Source: an uncultured archaeon (GTDB lineage: Archaea > Asgardarchaeota > Lokiarchaeia > Sigyniarchaeales > Promethearchaeaceae). From it: a DNA stretch of 6,614 nt. Shown here piece after piece: positions 30 through 6,607 of the stretch (within the stretch, counting starts at the first letter, position 1; each line of letters begins with the position of its first letter). Below the pieces are notes generated by a model. The model worked only from the letters and a program-made list of their open reading frames with translations. It ran no database searches and was not told the DNA's origin. Where the stretch lies: contig CAYRPF010000037.1 of assembly GCA_964426185.1 (NCBI GenBank), positions 1 through 6,614 of the forward strand, written 5' to 3'. A program made the position numbers and the translations under genes.

Positions 30-1232
30 TTATTTATTATTTTTGCGCATTTGAGGAATATATTTATCCAACAAACTCAGTAATTTATCAACATGTTCTT
101 TTTCAGTCCAACGCCCCAGACTGAACCGTAGAGAACCAGCTGCTTCATCTGGTGTTAAACCAATCCCTAAAAGTACTCGAGAAGGGTTGGTATCTCCCGC
201 ATGGCAAGCAGCACCTACCGAACAAGCCACTCCTGCCATGTCGAGCTTTACCATTAAATCGTAAGCATAAATATCTTGAAAACAAATATTTACGTTATGG
301 GGCAATCGATTTTTCCATGAACCGTTAAGTTTAGTTTCTGGAATTTCTTTAAGAATATGAGAGATTAAGTAATCCCGAAAATTTCTAAGCCGAGTATATT
401 CATCATCAAAATCAGATTGAGCAATTTCCACCGCTTTTGCCATTCCAATTACTCCAGGAATATTTTCTGTGGCAGGTCGCATGTTGAATTCTTGAGATCC
501 CCCATACATCAAAGGACGAAGATATTTGCGAGCAGTTGATACGTTTTTTTCAGTGTTTGGGTCATTTCTAATATAAAGAAATCCAACACCTTTAGGACCA
601 TAAAATTTGTGCGCGCTAACAGATAACATATCGATATTTTCTTTCTGAACATCGATTTTCACTTTAGTGAAAGCCTGCACAGCATCGGTATGGAACATAA
701 TACCTGCTTTTCGGGCAACTTTTCCGATTTCTTCAATGGGATTAATGGTCCCGATTTCATTATTAGCATACATTATGGAAATTAGCGCAGTATTCTCACG
801 AATCGCTTCTTGAATTTGCTGTGGTGAGATGGATCCATTAGAATCAACCTGTAGATAAGTTACTTCAAATCCTTGACGTTCCATAAATTTAGCGGTTTCA
901 AAAACAGCAGGATGTTCAATATTTGAAATGATTAAATGGGGAGTAATATTTGGATGTTCTTCATGGTACTTGAAAAGACGGCCTTGTATTGCCAAATTAT
1001 CGGCTTCCGATCCCCCAGATGTAAAAATTATCTCTTCACTTTTACAGTTGAGAAATTGAGCACACATATTTCGAGCCCAGCTAATCCCTTCATAAGCTGC
1101 CAATCCATCGGAATGAGCAGATCCTGCGTTTCCGAATTTTTGAAGATAATATTCATCCATAATCTTTACCACATCTGGATGAACGGGTGTGGTTGCATTG
1201 TAATCGAAATAAATACGGTTATAATCTTTCAT
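30..1232 (-). CDS. iscS: Group I PLP-dependent cysteine desulfurase (NifS/IscS family), with a selenocysteine-lyase-like active-site loop
   Basis: 400 aa with all aminotransferase class V/NifS motifs in order: IYFDYNATTP, FTSGGSEADN, IEHPAV, ANNEIG, FHTDAVQ, PLP lysine in SAHK209FYGPKG, GGSQE..RPATEN, catalytic Cys343 in SVGAACHAG, and SLRFSLGR. The family is secure; the exact symbol and substrate (iscS, nifS or SCLY-like) are less so. Confidence 0.92.
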   Translation of the reverse strand: MKDYNRIYFDYNATTPVHPDVVKIMDEYYLQKFGNAGSAHSDGLAAYEGISWARNMCAQFLNCKSEEIIFTSGGSEADNLAIQGRLFKYHEEHPNITPHLIISNIEHPAVFETAKFMERQGFEVTYLQVDSNGSISPQQIQEAIRENTALISIMYANNEIGTINPIEEIGKVARKAGIMFHTDAVQAFTKVKIDVQKENIDMLSVSAHKFYGPKGVGFLYIRNDPNTEKNVSTARKYLRPLMYGGSQEFNMRPATENIPGVIGMAKAVEIAQSDFDDEYTRLRNFRDYLISHILKEIPETKLNGSWKNRLPHNVNICFQDIYAYDLMVKLDMAGVACSVGAACHAGDTNPSRVLLGIGLTPDEAAGSLRFSLGRWTEKEHVDKLLSLLDKYIPQMRKNNK

Positions 1233-1298: not shown

Positions 1299-3386
1299 TT
1301 AATTGCTTTTCTTTAGGATAATTTTCCTTTTTTGAGAATTTTGATTTGAATTTTTATCGATTTTCTTGTTTGAATTTCGGGATTTCTTTGATTTCTTTAA
1401 TTCTTGCTGTTTAAAGTAGTTTTGAATTGTTTGAGCAATTTTCTGCCCAACCACGCTTCTTAAATCATCATAGGATGCTTTTCGAATTTCTTTCACGCTT
1501 CCAAAAAATCTGAGCAATTTTTGTTTCCTAGCGGGTCCAATTCCAGGAATTTCATCCAATTCTGACTTAGATTGGCGTTTTTGGCGTAATTTTTGATGAT
1601 ATCGATTGGCAAATCTATGAGATTCATCTCTTAAATGCTGAATCAACTGTAAAGCGGGAGAATCTAAAGGAAGATTAATGATTTCGTTGGAATTAGAAAG
1701 AATTATTGTAGGTGGAGTTAATTTTTCACTTCTCCCTTCGGGTTTCACCAAACCGATATGGGGAATATGATCCAATTGCAACTTTTGGAGTAATTGATGA
1801 GCCATATTTAGTTGCGCTTTGCCACCGTCAACTACAATCAAATCGGGAAACTCTTCTTCCTTTATCGCCCGATGGTATCTACGTTCCATTACTTCGCGCA
1901 TGGCAGCCACGTCATCCGGTCTTGTTATGGTTTTAACCCTATAGTGCCTGTAGTGTGATTTACTAGGTTGCCCATCTACAAATTGAACCATGGAACCAGT
2001 ATAATCCGTACCTTGAAAATGAGCCATATCAAAACCTTCAATGATTGAAGGTGGTTGTCCTAAGTGTAAAATTTCTTGCAGTTCAGCCAAACCTTGTTGA
2101 ATTCTGTTAATATAATTCTGCATTTGATGATGAGAAGATAAATACTTATCATATTCATCTTGCTGTCGAATTAGTAATTCAATATTCTTTTGAGCTATTC
2201 GCTCTAATCCAGCCGTTTTATCTTCTTCTGATGGAGAACGAAATGTGAGCAGTTTTCCTTTTATTTTTGCTTGTTTTTGCAATGTAGATTTAAGAGATTT
2301 AGGTAAATCTTCTCTTAATACAATTTCATCTGGAAAGGGCACATCAGGTCGCAGATAATGCTGCTGGATGAATTCGATTAAATATTTATTAGGATTTGTT
2401 AATTTTTGGTCGATATTCACGACATAGGGTGTTTTACTAAGTAATTTTCCCTTTCTAACATGAATAATAATCATTCCAGCACGACTTTTCGAGATACTGC
2501 CTGCAATTACGTCTATATCTTTTATTTGAATTCCATTAGAACTTAAATCATGTGTTCTTAACATTTTTTCACGATTTTTACTATTAGATAATGATAGAGT
2601 GAAGATAGACTGACTTTTAGTAAAAATTTCGAGTGCATGAAGCTGATCTCGGATTACTGCAGCTTCTTCAAATTTAAGGCTTGTAGAAGCAGTAGTCATG
2701 CGTTCTCTCAGTATCGAAGCAACAAAATCGACATTTCCGCTAAGTAATTCCTCTATATGGTAAATATTCTGCATATAATCCTTAGAAGAGATTTTTCCGC
2801 AGCAAGGACCGGGACAGAGTTTTAATTGATAATTAACACATGGGCGAGTTTTTGGATTTGGTATGACCGTTTTTTTGCATGTACAATATGGAAAAATCTT
2901 ACGGATATAGCGTAGAAATCGTTTTAAATCTCCAGCATCAACAAAAGGGCCGATATATTTATGATTTAATACATTTTTGGCAGGATTTCGAATGATTCGG
3001 ATTCGAGGAAATGGTTCATTAGTAATTTGAACCCAAGGGAAGGATTTATCATCCTTTAAATCCACATTGTATTCAGGTTGGTGTTTTTTAATCAGTTCAT
3101 TTTCGAGTAAAATCGCTTCCATTTCATTCTCGACGACAAAAACATCAATATCAGCAATATTACCTACTAATCGGTGAATTTTTTTAACATAGAAGAGATC
3201 CTCAGATGAACTTCGAGACATCCAATATGAATTTACCCGTTTTTTCAAAGATTTAGCTTTTCCAATATAGAGTACCTTTCCCTCAGAATTTTTAAAAAGA
3301 TAACACCCAGGTTTATCCGGGAGATTCTTCCGTTTAAACTCTAAGGGAGAAATTGGTTCAGAGGGAAAAGAAACGGGTGTGTCCAT
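1299..3386 (-). CDS. uvrC: Excinuclease ABC subunit C (UvrC)
   Basis: N-terminal GIY-YIG nuclease (PGCYLF..LYIGKAKSLKKRVNSY, LLENELIKKHQPEYN, KDDKSFP), Cys-rich region, UVR domain (LKFEEAAVIRDQL), RNase H-like nuclease (IEGFDMAH, DDVAAMREVMERRY, PDLIVVDGGKAQL, LRDESHRFA) and HhH domain (LDEIPGIGPARKQKLLRFFGS). The ORF extends to ATG 3425, but its first 13 codons (MNSFLIFHRIVIF) look like AT-rich intergenic sequence, so ATG 3386 is preferred. The start is uncertain. Residue numbers elsewhere use the 708-aa ORF. Confidence 0.96.
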   Translation of the reverse strand: MDTPVSFPSEPISPLEFKRKNLPDKPGCYLFKNSEGKVLYIGKAKSLKKRVNSYWMSRSSSEDLFYVKKIHRLVGNIADIDVFVVENEMEAILLENELIKKHQPEYNVDLKDDKSFPWVQITNEPFPRIRIIRNPAKNVLNHKYIGPFVDAGDLKRFLRYIRKIFPYCTCKKTVIPNPKTRPCVNYQLKLCPGPCCGKISSKDYMQNIYHIEELLSGNVDFVASILRERMTTASTSLKFEEAAVIRDQLHALEIFTKSQSIFTLSLSNSKNREKMLRTHDLSSNGIQIKDIDVIAGSISKSRAGMIIIHVRKGKLLSKTPYVVNIDQKLTNPNKYLIEFIQQHYLRPDVPFPDEIVLREDLPKSLKSTLQKQAKIKGKLLTFRSPSEEDKTAGLERIAQKNIELLIRQQDEYDKYLSSHHQMQNYINRIQQGLAELQEILHLGQPPSIIEGFDMAHFQGTDYTGSMVQFVDGQPSKSHYRHYRVKTITRPDDVAAMREVMERRYHRAIKEEEFPDLIVVDGGKAQLNMAHQLLQKLQLDHIPHIGLVKPEGRSEKLTPPTIILSNSNEIINLPLDSPALQLIQHLRDESHRFANRYHQKLRQKRQSKSELDEIPGIGPARKQKLLRFFGSVKEIRKASYDDLRSVVGQKIAQTIQNYFKQQELKKSKKSRNSNKKIDKNSNQNSQKRKIILKKSN

Positions 3387-3428
3387 GAATATCACAATCC
3401 TATGAAATATGAGAAAAGAATTCATATT

Positions 3429-3530: not shown

Positions 3531-6257
3531 TCATTTTTTGTTATTCGCAAAATATAAGCTTTCAGGTACTTTGTACTCCCATTTTAACATTCCCTCGGTA
3601 AATTCAGCTTGCAATGAATTTTCTTCTGATTTACCATAAAGATATACTCCCGTCCCACCAAATTGACCAGTATTTACATAAAGAATTGGAATTTTAATCT
3701 CTTCTGCTAAAGAATTTAGAAATTCTTGTTCGTTTTTAGTCCAATAGCCGTTATTCAAGAAGACCACAAAATTTAAGTGCTTCTGCTCGGTGATAAAAGG
3801 CAAAAATTGCGAATGCTCTTTAATATCTTCTCCAATGAGAATTAAAAATCTTCCGAATGGTGAATTAAATATTCTAAGCACAGGAGGCTTGGTTAAGTTG
3901 ATATTTTCCTTCCATTCATCTAAATGGCGTTCAGTGGGTGGTAATATGGTAGGACTGTTTTTTTCTTGGTATACCATATCATTTGCTAAAGGAGATATTA
4001 CGAATGCACGATTAAGGAATTTTCCTTCACTTTTTGAAGCGATCGTTTCACATCCAGTAATAATGAATATGTTGAATCGATCAGCAAACTGTTGCAATTT
4101 GCTCAAATAACTTTCGGGCATGGAAGTTTCGGGAAAGATTATAACATGGTTTCCTTCATATATTGCATCATCTAGATACCCGATAACCTTTGGTTTTGAG
4201 CGCATTTGGATGGATTCTTTAGTAAACTGCAAAATATGATTACGACGGAAAAGTTCATAATTGTAATATCGTTGAATATGTCTCTCCAATATTGTTCTAT
4301 TATCTTCTATCATACTTTGGCGGGGTGATCCCTTTAGATACTGAACTAATGCTATATTGACCTTTTTTCCTGTATACATAGTCATATCAGAATCTAGTGT
4401 TATTTCCTCAAGAATAAAATTGCGTTTGGTCTCTTGGGTCATTTTTAAGTGGCGTTGAATAATCTCGTCATCTTCTTCGCGGAAAACAGGTTCAATATCT
4501 ACTGTGGTGGGAGAAACTACTAGATCTTCAATAGAACGAAGGGTAAATTCTTGTTCTTCATCTATCCTTAATTCTAAAGGTTCAATCTGCATAATTATAT
4601 TACCAATAATCTCAATATCATCCTTCAATTGCTCAATTTCATGAAGCGCGGCATCTAAAGTTAAACCACGTTTGTTGATTTGAATAAATTTTTCATTTAA
4701 TCGATTTTGAGGTTCGGAAAGAAGAGGGCGTAAATCTTCAGGGAGTTTTTTCTCCAATAAAAGAATTTTTAAACCCAAGTCTTGGAAATGTTGGATAAAT
4801 TGTCCTTTATTTTTACTTTTAAATATTTGATTGTATACTTCTAAAACTTGCCAATAACCTTTTGAAATGAAAGTCTGATTTCCAATCATTCGTGCAGCAT
4901 TGTCCAGATGTTCATAAATTTCCTTAAATTCCAGTTTTGAAGTTGTGTAGTTCTTTTTTGCAATTTTTTCTAGCACCATACATCCTTTACTGGATGCGAT
5001 ATAAAAAGGTTGACGAAATTCCCAGGTGAGAGATTCTTCACTCGCTTTTTGAAAGTATTGACTGGCTTTATTATATTTTTTTTCACTTAAGGTAATTTTA
5101 GCTAAACTTTCGGCGGCCGCAGCACGTACACTCAATTCTTTATGATTCAACAGCTTGGATAGAGGTCGAACGGCATGATTTAAGAAATAAAATGGCACAT
5201 TAGATATATTATTTCCTTCAATTTTACCTAAAGCCCGCACTCCCGCTACTAATATTTCAGGGGTTTTTTCTTTTTTAAGTAGGTTTATTATGGGTTTTGA
5301 AGCTGTTTTATCCAATAACATCCCAAGAGCATTGCAAATTTCTTCTCTAATTTGTGGATTCTCATCTGTTAACAATTCTATTAAAGGTTCAACTGCAATA
5401 GCATCGCCTAGCTTACCAAGAGCATTTGCTGCAGTTTCTCGAATTTCAGGACTTGGATCATGGAGTCGATCAATAAACTGGCGAACAGTAGCTGGATCTT
5501 TAATATCACTTAGCGCAGATGCACAAGCTCTTCGAACATAACTATCTTCATCATTTAATATATCTAATAGTGGTTCAATGATTTCAGGACTTTTTGTTTG
5601 TCCTAATGAAAGCACAGCATATTGACGAAATCGTGGATTATCGGATTGAAGGAGTTTTACTAATGGTTCAATAATTCTTTTATCTTTTTGACCTAATGGT
5701 CCTAGTGTCAAAATTGCCATTTGCTTAACTGCATCATCAGTTTCAGATTCAAGCAGTTCAATTATAGGCTCTACAGAACGTGGATCACCCAAATTTGATA
5801 ATGCAACTAATGCATTAATCCTAACTTGTGGATTTTTATCTTCTAAACATTCAATTAAAGGAAATAAACTATTTTTATCTTCGATTAAACCAAGAGCTAG
5901 CACTGCTGCTGCCCTAATTTCATCATGAGGATCCGATAAGATCTTAATTAAGGGTTTTACGGCAGATGCAGATCTAAATTCTGATAATGTCTTGATCGCT
6001 GCGAGCTGAACATTAACGTCTTCGTCAGATATTGCAGTAATAATTGGATTAACGATTTTATCAGTAGCCGGTTGAACGCTTAAAGAAAGTATCGCTGCTT
6101 CACGAATTTTGGGATTTTCATCTAATAAAAGATTTAATAGTGGTTCAATGATAGACTCATCATCATAAATCATGCCCAATCTTTTTATTGCGAGCAGTTT
6201 AGAATTCAAATCATCACTTTGAAGTTGTTGTAGTAATAAAGAAACTTGTTGGCTCAT
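3531..6257 (-). CDS. HEAT-repeat protein fused to a C-terminal nitrilase/carbon-nitrogen hydrolase-like domain (probably non-canonical or inactive)
   Basis: 908-aa intact ORF. aa ~5-390: about 12 HEAT-like repeats. aa ~391-630: helical/acidic region. aa ~631-900: CN-hydrolase motifs in correct order (VNIALVQ, VIIFPE710, FIITG, FLNRAFVI, YQEK766, IFNSPFGRFLILIG809ED, ILYVNTGQFGGTGVY). Confidence 0.85.
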   Translation of the reverse strand: MSQQVSLLLQQLQSDDLNSKLLAIKRLGMIYDDESIIEPLLNLLLDENPKIREAAILSLSVQPATDKIVNPIITAISDEDVNVQLAAIKTLSEFRSASAVKPLIKILSDPHDEIRAAAVLALGLIEDKNSLFPLIECLEDKNPQVRINALVALSNLGDPRSVEPIIELLESETDDAVKQMAILTLGPLGQKDKRIIEPLVKLLQSDNPRFRQYAVLSLGQTKSPEIIEPLLDILNDEDSYVRRACASALSDIKDPATVRQFIDRLHDPSPEIRETAANALGKLGDAIAVEPLIELLTDENPQIREEICNALGMLLDKTASKPIINLLKKEKTPEILVAGVRALGKIEGNNISNVPFYFLNHAVRPLSKLLNHKELSVRAAAAESLAKITLSEKKYNKASQYFQKASEESLTWEFRQPFYIASSKGCMVLEKIAKKNYTTSKLEFKEIYEHLDNAARMIGNQTFISKGYWQVLEVYNQIFKSKNKGQFIQHFQDLGLKILLLEKKLPEDLRPLLSEPQNRLNEKFIQINKRGLTLDAALHEIEQLKDDIEIIGNIIMQIEPLELRIDEEQEFTLRSIEDLVVSPTTVDIEPVFREEDDEIIQRHLKMTQETKRNFILEEITLDSDMTMYTGKKVNIALVQYLKGSPRQSMIEDNRTILERHIQRYYNYELFRRNHILQFTKESIQMRSKPKVIGYLDDAIYEGNHVIIFPETSMPESYLSKLQQFADRFNIFIITGCETIASKSEGKFLNRAFVISPLANDMVYQEKNSPTILPPTERHLDEWKENINLTKPPVLRIFNSPFGRFLILIGEDIKEHSQFLPFITEQKHLNFVVFLNNGYWTKNEQEFLNSLAEEIKIPILYVNTGQFGGTGVYLYGKSEENSLQAEFTEGMLKWEYKVPESLYFANNKK
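3558..4367 (-). other. Nitrilase-superfamily (CN hydrolase) fold domain within the 908-aa protein
   Basis: Motif order matches the superfamily: beta1 ending in Q (IALVQ), the xxFPE catalytic Glu (codon 4128-4130), a G-containing strand, N-x-A-x-(V/I), the catalytic Lys (codon 3960-3962), a 'T/SPFGRxGxxICxD'-like segment (here SPFGRFLILIGED; Gly codon 3831-3833) and a late N...G-x-S/T motif. Recognised by eye, not by HMM. Confidence 0.8.
5088..6245 (-). repeat. Protein-level tandem HEAT (PBS-lyase HEAT-like) repeats, about 12 units of ~31 aa
   Basis: Recurring consensus (A/I)(V/I)EPL(I/L)xLLxD(E/P)(D/N)PxVRxxA(A/V)xALGx(I/L) beginning near aa 5, 36, 68, 99, 130, 161, 195, 226, 257, 288, 319 and 362. 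The units are diverged at DNA level. Confidence 0.92.
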
Positions 6258-6412: not shown

Positions 6413-6607
6413 ATGGGCATTTTTAAGGCGCTTAAGCGTAAATCTAAAAAACCAACAATTAAACTCTGTCCGCAATGCGAGCAACCCACAATTTCACGCA
6501 CTGCGGTGGGACAGTTTACAAATGTGGATTATTATGTCTGTAGTAATTGTAATTATCAAGGTTCATTTTATATTGAAATGGAATTACCTGAGAAGAAGGA
6601 CTCTTAA
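6413..6607 (+). CDS. Small zinc-ribbon protein (CPxC-x20-CxxC-x-Y-x-G), function unknown
   Basis: MGIFKALKRKSKKPTIKLCPQC-x20-CSNCNYQG..., 64 aa from ATG 6413 (the ORF track uses TTG 6389), stop TAA 6605-6607. Two Cys knuckles, a basic N-terminus and an acidic C-terminus, as in archaeal one-domain CPxCG-like zinc-finger microproteins. Confidence 0.8.
   Translation: MGIFKALKRKSKKPTIKLCPQCEQPTISRTAVGQFTNVDYYVCSNCNYQGSFYIEMELPEKKDS

Follow-up and report, generated by a model that had tools for sequence, protein, structure and literature searches.

The window analysed here is a whole contig of 6,614 bp (C37) from the 3.26 Mb, 92% complete genome of an uncultured Lokiarchaeia archaeon. Its G+C content is about 34% throughout. 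The subject of this work is a minus-strand gene that encodes a protein of 908 amino acids (aa), in which a HEAT-repeat solenoid is followed by a helical domain, an acidic linker and a nitrilase-fold domain (HEAT protein in the following). The fold of the C-terminal domain is well preserved and the nucleophile Cys of its active site is replaced by Gly. The gene and the parts of its product are the following:

3531..6257, minus strand: HEAT-nitrilase gene, 908 aa plus stop, one uninterrupted open reading frame with 27 homologues, mostly full-length
5082..6257, minus strand: HEAT-repeat solenoid, aa 1-392, 12 helix pairs, net charge -15 (Pfam, AlphaFold2 (AF2), Foldseek)
4572..5081, minus strand: conserved eight-helix middle domain, aa 393-562, no family assigned (AF2 block with a predicted local distance difference test score (pLDDT) of ~70-90)
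4416..4571, minus strand: disordered acidic linker, aa 563-614, pLDDT <50 for 563-612, net charge -7
3534..4415, minus strand: nitrilase-fold domain without nucleophile, aa 615-908 (AF2, Foldseek, VIA, PADLOC RTasNitrilase)
4128..4130, minus strand: codon of Glu710 (IIFPE), catalytic Glu position, invariant in the family
3960..3962, minus strand: codon of Lys766 (QEK), catalytic Lys position, at least 90% conserved
3930..3932, minus strand: codon of Glu776, at the place of the second Glu in the nitrilase tetrad, at least 90% conserved
3831..3833, minus strand: codon of Gly809 (ILIGED versus ICxD), at the position of the nucleophile Cys, at least 90% conserved

An earlier note on this DNA, made from the letters alone, had proposed a nitrilase fold for the C-terminal part of the protein. 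Residues 615-908 were folded alone with 18 orthologues by AF2, which resulted in a pLDDT of 82 and a predicted template modelling score (pTM) of 0.82. A Foldseek search of the PDB with this model returned nitrilase-superfamily members as every top match (E ~1e-10). VIA-align superposed the model on Nit2, CJ1056C, NIT4, NadE and others with Z-scores of 22.6-20.6 and root mean square deviations of 2.4-3.3 Å over 205-225 residues. The proposed fold was thus confirmed, and the alpha-beta-beta-alpha sandwich of the superfamily (PF00795) is present in the model. The same sandwich is shared with the canonical enzymes (Nit2/Nit3, the glutaminase domain of NadE, beta-ureidopropionase and vanin; Z 21-22.6). 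Compared with these, the HEAT-fused domain has about 35 extra residues between beta1 and alpha1 and a shorter loop before the GG strand. Unlike them, it scores under the Pfam threshold, with 14.6 bits for CN_hydrolase against a gathering cut-off of 23.2, and its sequence is highly divergent from that family. A profile built from the HEAT family only found nothing useful among PDB sequences, and hhalign of the family profile with one canonical CN_hydrolase yielded a match of 32 columns only.

Active-site columns were assigned from a multiple alignment that included distant bridging relatives and three canonical CN_hydrolases of the same genome. A second alignment paired a broader profile with the solved yeast Nit3 and NadE. 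The alignments placed the catalytic Glu on IIFPE (E710) and the catalytic Lys on QEK (K766), with the motifs in the order given in the earlier note, and the second Glu of the canonical enzymes was aligned with E776. Cys is known as the catalytic nucleophile across the nitrilase superfamily (Pace and Brenner 2001). In contrast to the canonical enzymes, the I-C-x-D/E motif that holds this residue reads ILIGED in the HEAT-fused domain, with Gly809 in place of the Cys. The G809 column contains the I-C-F/E-D Cys of the canonical enzymes from the same genome and also the Cys (I-C-x-D) of Nit3 and NadE. With a tetratricopeptide repeat (TPR)-nitrilase relative, hhalign paired LILIGED with ivlCrdf. Gly occupies the position in 24 of the 26 HEAT-fused sequences; the other two carry Ser (P0028) and Lys (P0029, a truncated outlier). 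A second clade-specific change was found at Gln865, which is invariant in the HEAT family and Glu in relatives. The NTGQFGG loop is invariant or at least 90% conserved in the family.

Substitution rates were determined relative to the closest orthologue (88% identity). The nonsynonymous rate (dN) was 0.074 for the nitrilase domain and 0.090 for the whole gene. The synonymous rate (dS) reached 1.37 in the HEAT segment and 2.53 over the whole gene; the nitrilase domain alone was too saturated to compute. The HEAT form is under strong purifying selection. Its nitrilase domain is no decaying relic, because E710 never varies in the family, K766, E776 and G809 are conserved to at least 90%, dN is low and the mean pairwise identity of the nitrilase segment (~60%) is on par with that of the HEAT segment.

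Strong selection on the domain, together with the invariance or near invariance of E710, K766, E776 and the pocket loops, would also be compatible with a domain that is still an enzyme. Here the Glu-Lys-Glu set would work with water or a substrate-borne nucleophile and carry out new chemistry in the nitrilase fold. A Gly offers no side chain for the part that Cys is known to play throughout the superfamily, and C736, the one Cys present in the domain, is not conserved. In the related defence nitrilase UG5-large, the exchange C876A abolishes function (PMC13436386). We consider retained or new catalysis quite unlikely.

The relatives of the domain were analyzed with the PADLOC profiles for nitrilases of reverse transcriptase (RT) defence systems (DRT1, UG5/DRT11 and RT-associated nitrilase). 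Matches were obtained with RTasNitrilase (45 bits, E 1.6e-12), RT_UG5-nitrilase (28 bits, E 1.5e-7) and Drt1a (E 0.0027). In the genome of the window, the RTasNitrilase model matches the HEAT protein alone and no canonical CN_hydrolase, and PF00795 matches three other genes and not the HEAT protein. As judged from these profiles, the nearest relatives of the domain are found in a conflict-type clade and not among metabolic amidases. This agrees with the earlier note, which had placed the domain nearer to defence-associated than to metabolic nitrilases (45 bits for RTasNitrilase versus 14.6 for CN_hydrolase). The note had taken the compact VNTGQFGGTGV motif and a long beta1-alpha1 insert as traits of the defence clade. 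The short NTGQ-FGG loop is indeed common to that clade, and the consensus of relatives with leucine-rich repeats (LRR) suggests that the long stretch from beta1 to the FPE strand occurs there too. DRT1, which the note had named, did not turn out to be the closest relative. In addition to the weak Drt1a match, a broader profile searched against the PDB found Nit3 (3.6e-9) and NadE (7e-9) ahead of DRT1 (9yfd, 3.1e-4).

Structural neighbours in the Atlas were Promethearchaeota TPR and CN-hydrolase clusters and a bacterial RT (RVT_1) cluster, including RT-nitrilase fusions. An exhaustive phmmer search of 1.84 billion representatives retrieved 42 proteins. Among the non-orthologous relatives 23 of 32 were LRR fusions, one of them also with HNH and one with a helix-turn-helix (HTH)/DUF2240 region; another of the proteins was an AAA_21/OLD-like ATPase fusion. 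Asgard genomes also hold TPR fusions of ~890 aa, an ATPase fusion, a stand-alone form and proteins of 1,275-1,290 aa, whose N-terminal 1,000 residues are without an assigned family. For the following counts, 201 Asgard genomes were sampled, 14 from the GTDB family of the window and 187 others. RTasNitrilase-type domains were found in 54 of these 201 genomes, with up to 8 matches per genome.

The proteins P0058 and L012 (G144:C3) carry an AAA_21/OLD-like ATPase of the AriA/GajA/PtuA type fused to the same nitrilase subtype, which is likely another conflict architecture. Tandem arrays of three or four paralogues of ~1,280 aa were observed, for example in L051 at 4255-16021 (G117:C33). Nothing is recognised in these paralogues apart from a Cys-containing nitrilase domain of RT-associated type at the C-terminus. 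On a metagenomic contig, the LRR-nitrilase-HNH protein P0045 (L005 10001-12433) is encoded between two MmeI/Eco57I-type methyltransferase-endonuclease genes, with NucS_C-domain, Nmad3-like and PLD nuclease genes nearby. These surroundings look like a defence island.

The Asgard LRR-, TPR- and ATPase-nitrilase proteins (for example L009, L052, L012 and P0045) are the closest sequence relatives of the domain, with E values of 1e-9 to 1e-4 in single-sequence searches and 1e-13 to 1e-28 with the family profile. The repeat-containing forms resemble the HEAT protein in layout, with the repeat solenoid at the N-terminus and the nitrilase fold at the C-terminus, and the TPR form is of similar length. 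Homology to the HEAT protein is confined to the nitrilase domain. The HEAT form differs from these relatives, which keep Glu-Lys-Cys, occur in multiple copies, are patchily distributed, form tandem arrays and lie in at least one case in a defence island. The Cys, in I-C-K/R-D, was present in every LRR-, TPR- or ATPase-fused Asgard relative taken from the genomes, and the Cys was also kept by 31 of 32 more distant relatives from the protein library. A maximum-likelihood tree of 63 domains separated the conflict-type set from the canonical enzymes (SH-aLRT 96). This set contained the HEAT family as one clade (88), a clade of TPR and 1,280-aa proteins (98) and a clade of LRR and ATPase fusions (97); the mutual order of the three is not settled and long branches call for caution. 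The single HEAT clade implies that the Cys was probably lost once in this family.

With the RT-associated nitrilases (RTasNitrilase, UG5/DRT11) the domain has in common the nitrilase-fold subtype, according to the profile scores, and the C-terminal location within a large multidomain protein. Unlike in RT-nitrilase systems, no RT is fused (no RT domain was found in the protein with Pfam) or encoded adjacent to the HEAT protein, and the gene context is a housekeeping one. In DRT1, to which the HEAT-fused domain has only the weak match described, the nitrilase domain forms the core of a tetramer, has C1116 as its catalytic residue and presumably acts as the effector (PMC13275509). In UG5-large, the C876A mutant loses defence (PMC13436386). 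Both Cys residues correspond to the Gly of the HEAT protein. Since the nucleophile is missing, the HEAT-fused domain should not be able to act in the manner of DRT1 or UG5-large.

This bears directly on the possibility that the HEAT protein is an active antiviral conflict protein, whose solenoid senses an invader protein and whose nitrilase-fold domain signals or assembles the response. The match to PADLOC RTasNitrilase would fit, and so would the combination of repeat solenoid and nitrilase, as seen in the LRR and TPR relatives, at least one of which lies in a defence island. Apart from the missing Cys, such a role is at odds with the state of the gene, which is present in single copy at a fixed position, is vertically inherited and has no defence genes nearby. 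Its sequence divergence tracks that of UvrC and does not show the rapid turnover typical of immune genes. An antiviral function is therefore highly improbable in our view. The label of a sensor-effector conflict protein given in the earlier note fits the relatives and not this gene, because its context is housekeeping and it is single-copy and vertically inherited; nor was a defence-island context found.

The neighbouring genes in the window are the following:

30-1232, minus strand: class-V aminotransferase / cysteine desulfurase
1299..3425, minus strand: uvrC (Pfam UvrC domains), immediately downstream of the HEAT gene on the same strand, gap of 105 bp
6413..6607, plus strand: gene for a small zinc-ribbon protein of 64 aa (CPxC...CxxCxYxGxF), divergent from the HEAT gene and ~155 bp apart

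No Pfam family was found for the zinc-ribbon protein (6413-6607). As in the window, no RT was found next to the HEAT gene at orthologous loci. In G204, a closed genome from the genus to which the window belongs, the orthologous region runs desulfurase, uvrC, HEAT gene, zinc-ribbon gene and ThiF. Because this closed genome keeps the same gene order, the contig ends of the window can be read as assembly breaks and not as biological ends. The fusion is no assembly chimera, since most of the 27 homologues are full-length (~895-914 aa), including those of the closed Promethearchaeum syntrophicum and Lokiarchaeum ossiferum genomes. The architecture is thus conserved. The listed start of uvrC (ATG at 3425; 3387-3425, minus strand) adds 13 residues that are shared with no homologue, and alignments with uvrC homologues begin at residue 13-27. 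The true start is probably Met14 (~3386). With this start, the gap between HEAT gene and uvrC is ~145 bp and contains two T-runs (T8, T10).

The family profile detected one copy in 10 of the 14 genomes of the GTDB family of the window, among them the closed ones with the P. syntrophicum and L. ossiferum proteins, and no strong match in the 187 other Asgard genomes. In G207 (74% complete), which has no copy, both flanking genes lie at contig ends and the absence is probably an assembly gap. G162 (91% complete) also has no copy and carries alaS in front of uvrC. In 9 of the 10 carriers, uvrC directly follows the HEAT gene on the same strand with gaps of 8-160 bp. The most divergent homologue (31% identity, in G203) adjoins nadA and is on a separate contig from uvrC. 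The syntenic block consists of Pus10, ThiF, zinc-ribbon gene, HEAT gene and uvrC, followed by MFS/M24 or desulfurase. The genes uvrA and uvrB are together on another contig.

Based on this arrangement, the HEAT protein might be an accessory factor of nucleotide excision repair that is co-transcribed with uvrC and binds UvrC or partners in damaged-DNA processing via its HEAT and helical domains. The adjacency to uvrC described above is kept across four genera, down to 42% identity of the HEAT protein and 47% of UvrC, while the genes beyond uvrC vary, and with uvrA and uvrB elsewhere it is uvrC alone that accompanies the HEAT gene. However, the whole region is syntenic in the family and the adjacency may be plain inheritance. 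The zinc-ribbon gene forms an older conserved pair with uvrC; the two lie <400 bp apart in 51 of 61 sister-family genomes, 48 of them with divergent orientation, where the count of 51 is a hand comparison of two coordinate tables. Given this older pair, adjacency by itself says little about a shared function. UvrC is found in 79 of the 81 sampled genomes of the order, nearly all without the HEAT protein, and the genomes G162 and G203 show uvrC after alaS and on a different contig from the HEAT gene, respectively. Furthermore, the acidic solenoid makes direct DNA binding unlikely, and the T-runs between the HEAT gene and uvrC may terminate transcription. Taken together, we regard a role in excision repair as rather unlikely.

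The simplest reading of the synteny is that the HEAT gene was inserted within the older divergent pair of zinc-ribbon gene and uvrC. Because of its position inside this pair, co-expression of the HEAT gene with uvrC is plausible. It may be the zinc-ribbon protein, and not the HEAT protein, that has truly accompanied UvrC over the long term. The zinc-ribbon protein was rejected as a specific partner of the HEAT protein, since its gene is present in 79 of the 81 genomes of the order, with one clear copy each, with or without the HEAT gene.

The N-terminal part was analyzed with Pfam and AF2. HEAT_2 matched aa 5-400 in 8 stretches (E 9.6e-91) and HEAT matched with E 7e-47. The AF2 model of the full-length protein (pLDDT 80, pTM 0.51) has 12 helix pairs within aa 2-391, eight more helices at 395-558, disorder at 563-612 and an alpha/beta domain from 615 on. 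The tandem helix-turn-helix repeats of ~31 residues are those of HEAT-repeat proteins (PF13646/PF02985), and the roughly 12 repeats read from the sequence at aa 5-390 were recovered. The connector of 240 aa, described in the earlier note as helical and acidic, has to be divided. Its end (563-612) is acidic, as stated, and disordered, but residues 393-562 form a confidently folded, conserved eight-helix domain. No Pfam match was found for this middle domain, and an Atlas search with aa 395-570 returned just generic TPR-like or helical neighbours (TM <=0.54). Its mean pairwise identity is 61%. The linker, with 39%, is the sole variable part of the protein.

From these data we favour, with modest confidence, a scaffold protein. 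Its nitrilase fold, dead but well preserved, would be used for binding a ligand or partner or for assembly, and its gene would come from the conflict-type family and now be inherited as a core gene. The HEAT protein would act as a cytoplasmic scaffold or adaptor, with the acidic 12-repeat solenoid and the eight-helix domain as putative protein-binding surfaces. The flexible acidic linker would tether both to the nitrilase-fold domain. In this domain the predicted pocket is kept (Glu710, Lys766, Glu776 and the NTGQFGG loop) and the Cys is exchanged for Gly809, so it should be unable to form the thioacyl intermediate needed for C-N hydrolysis in the superfamily; a binding or assembly module is most likely. 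The non-catalytic role considered in the earlier note, ligand sensing or oligomerisation, would fit the loss of the Cys. A homodimer prediction with two copies of the nitrilase-fold domain (median 0.38, mark 0.42) spoke neither for nor against oligomerisation. The family would have descended from conflict-type nitrilases, whose present Asgard members still have the Cys and show the variability of immune genes, and in one Lokiarchaeia family the HEAT form would have become fixed in a single copy with vertical inheritance. As the HEAT gene lies between former divergent neighbours, it is probably expressed from the old promoter region on the uvrC side.

Some points weigh against this view. Conservation of Glu, Lys and the second Glu is above the expectation for a purely structural pseudoenzyme, and residual or new chemistry would fit it too. 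The Ser of P0028 is an exception at the nucleophile position. The arrangement of the domains is uncertain in the full-length model (pTM 0.51), the functional part of the proposal is drawn from sequence and models, and no partner of the HEAT protein has been identified. The order of events, insertion or loss elsewhere, is taken from synteny, and the divergent G203 homologue stands beside nadA and not uvrC.

A full-text literature search found no paper on the HEAT-nitrilase architecture, in line with the earlier note, which knew of no characterised fusion of this kind, and none on the Asgard LRR- and TPR-nitrilase proteins and their expansion. The HEAT protein represents no new kind of system. 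It is a clean natural case in which a nitrilase-superfamily fold has stayed under strong selection although the nucleophile is gone, which argues for a use other than thiol-based C-N hydrolysis. It also ties this fold to a wide, apparently unstudied Asgard expansion of repeat-nitrilase proteins, whose bacterial counterparts (DRT1, UG5) have only recently been found to act in defence against phages. A link to UvrC function is possible. In a more far-reaching scenario, to which we give very little weight, Asgard archaea would possess a large and undescribed immune-type family that combines LRR, TPR, ATPase or unknown 1000-residue sensors with a nitrilase effector. One member would have been captured in one Lokiarchaeia family, lost its nucleophile, been placed directly before uvrC and now take part in the DNA-damage response as an adaptor that senses a ligand or protein. 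If true, one could trace how an immune effector fold came to serve as a housekeeping regulator in the archaea closest to eukaryotes. Both cultured Lokiarchaeia, P. syntrophicum and L. ossiferum, carry the gene, and the partners of the protein, its oligomeric state and a possible tie to UvrC are thus open to direct study.

The solenoid itself was also compared with known HEAT proteins. Foldseek with the whole model found generic HEAT solenoids only (alphaRep with 34-39% identity, importins and Integrator subunits). The phycobilin-lyase HEAT families of NCBIfam (CpcE, CpcF and NblB) were rejected, with 108, 70 and 104 bits against equivalog cut-offs of 330, 220 and 300. Matches to PADLOC HEAT-ARM_XIII and HEAT_CxxC_PD-DEXK were put down to generic repeat similarity. 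The CpcE/NblB-like PBS-lyase proteins and the designed alphaRep have HEAT repeats of the same 31-residue type as the protein studied here, but are without its extra helical domain and nitrilase fold.

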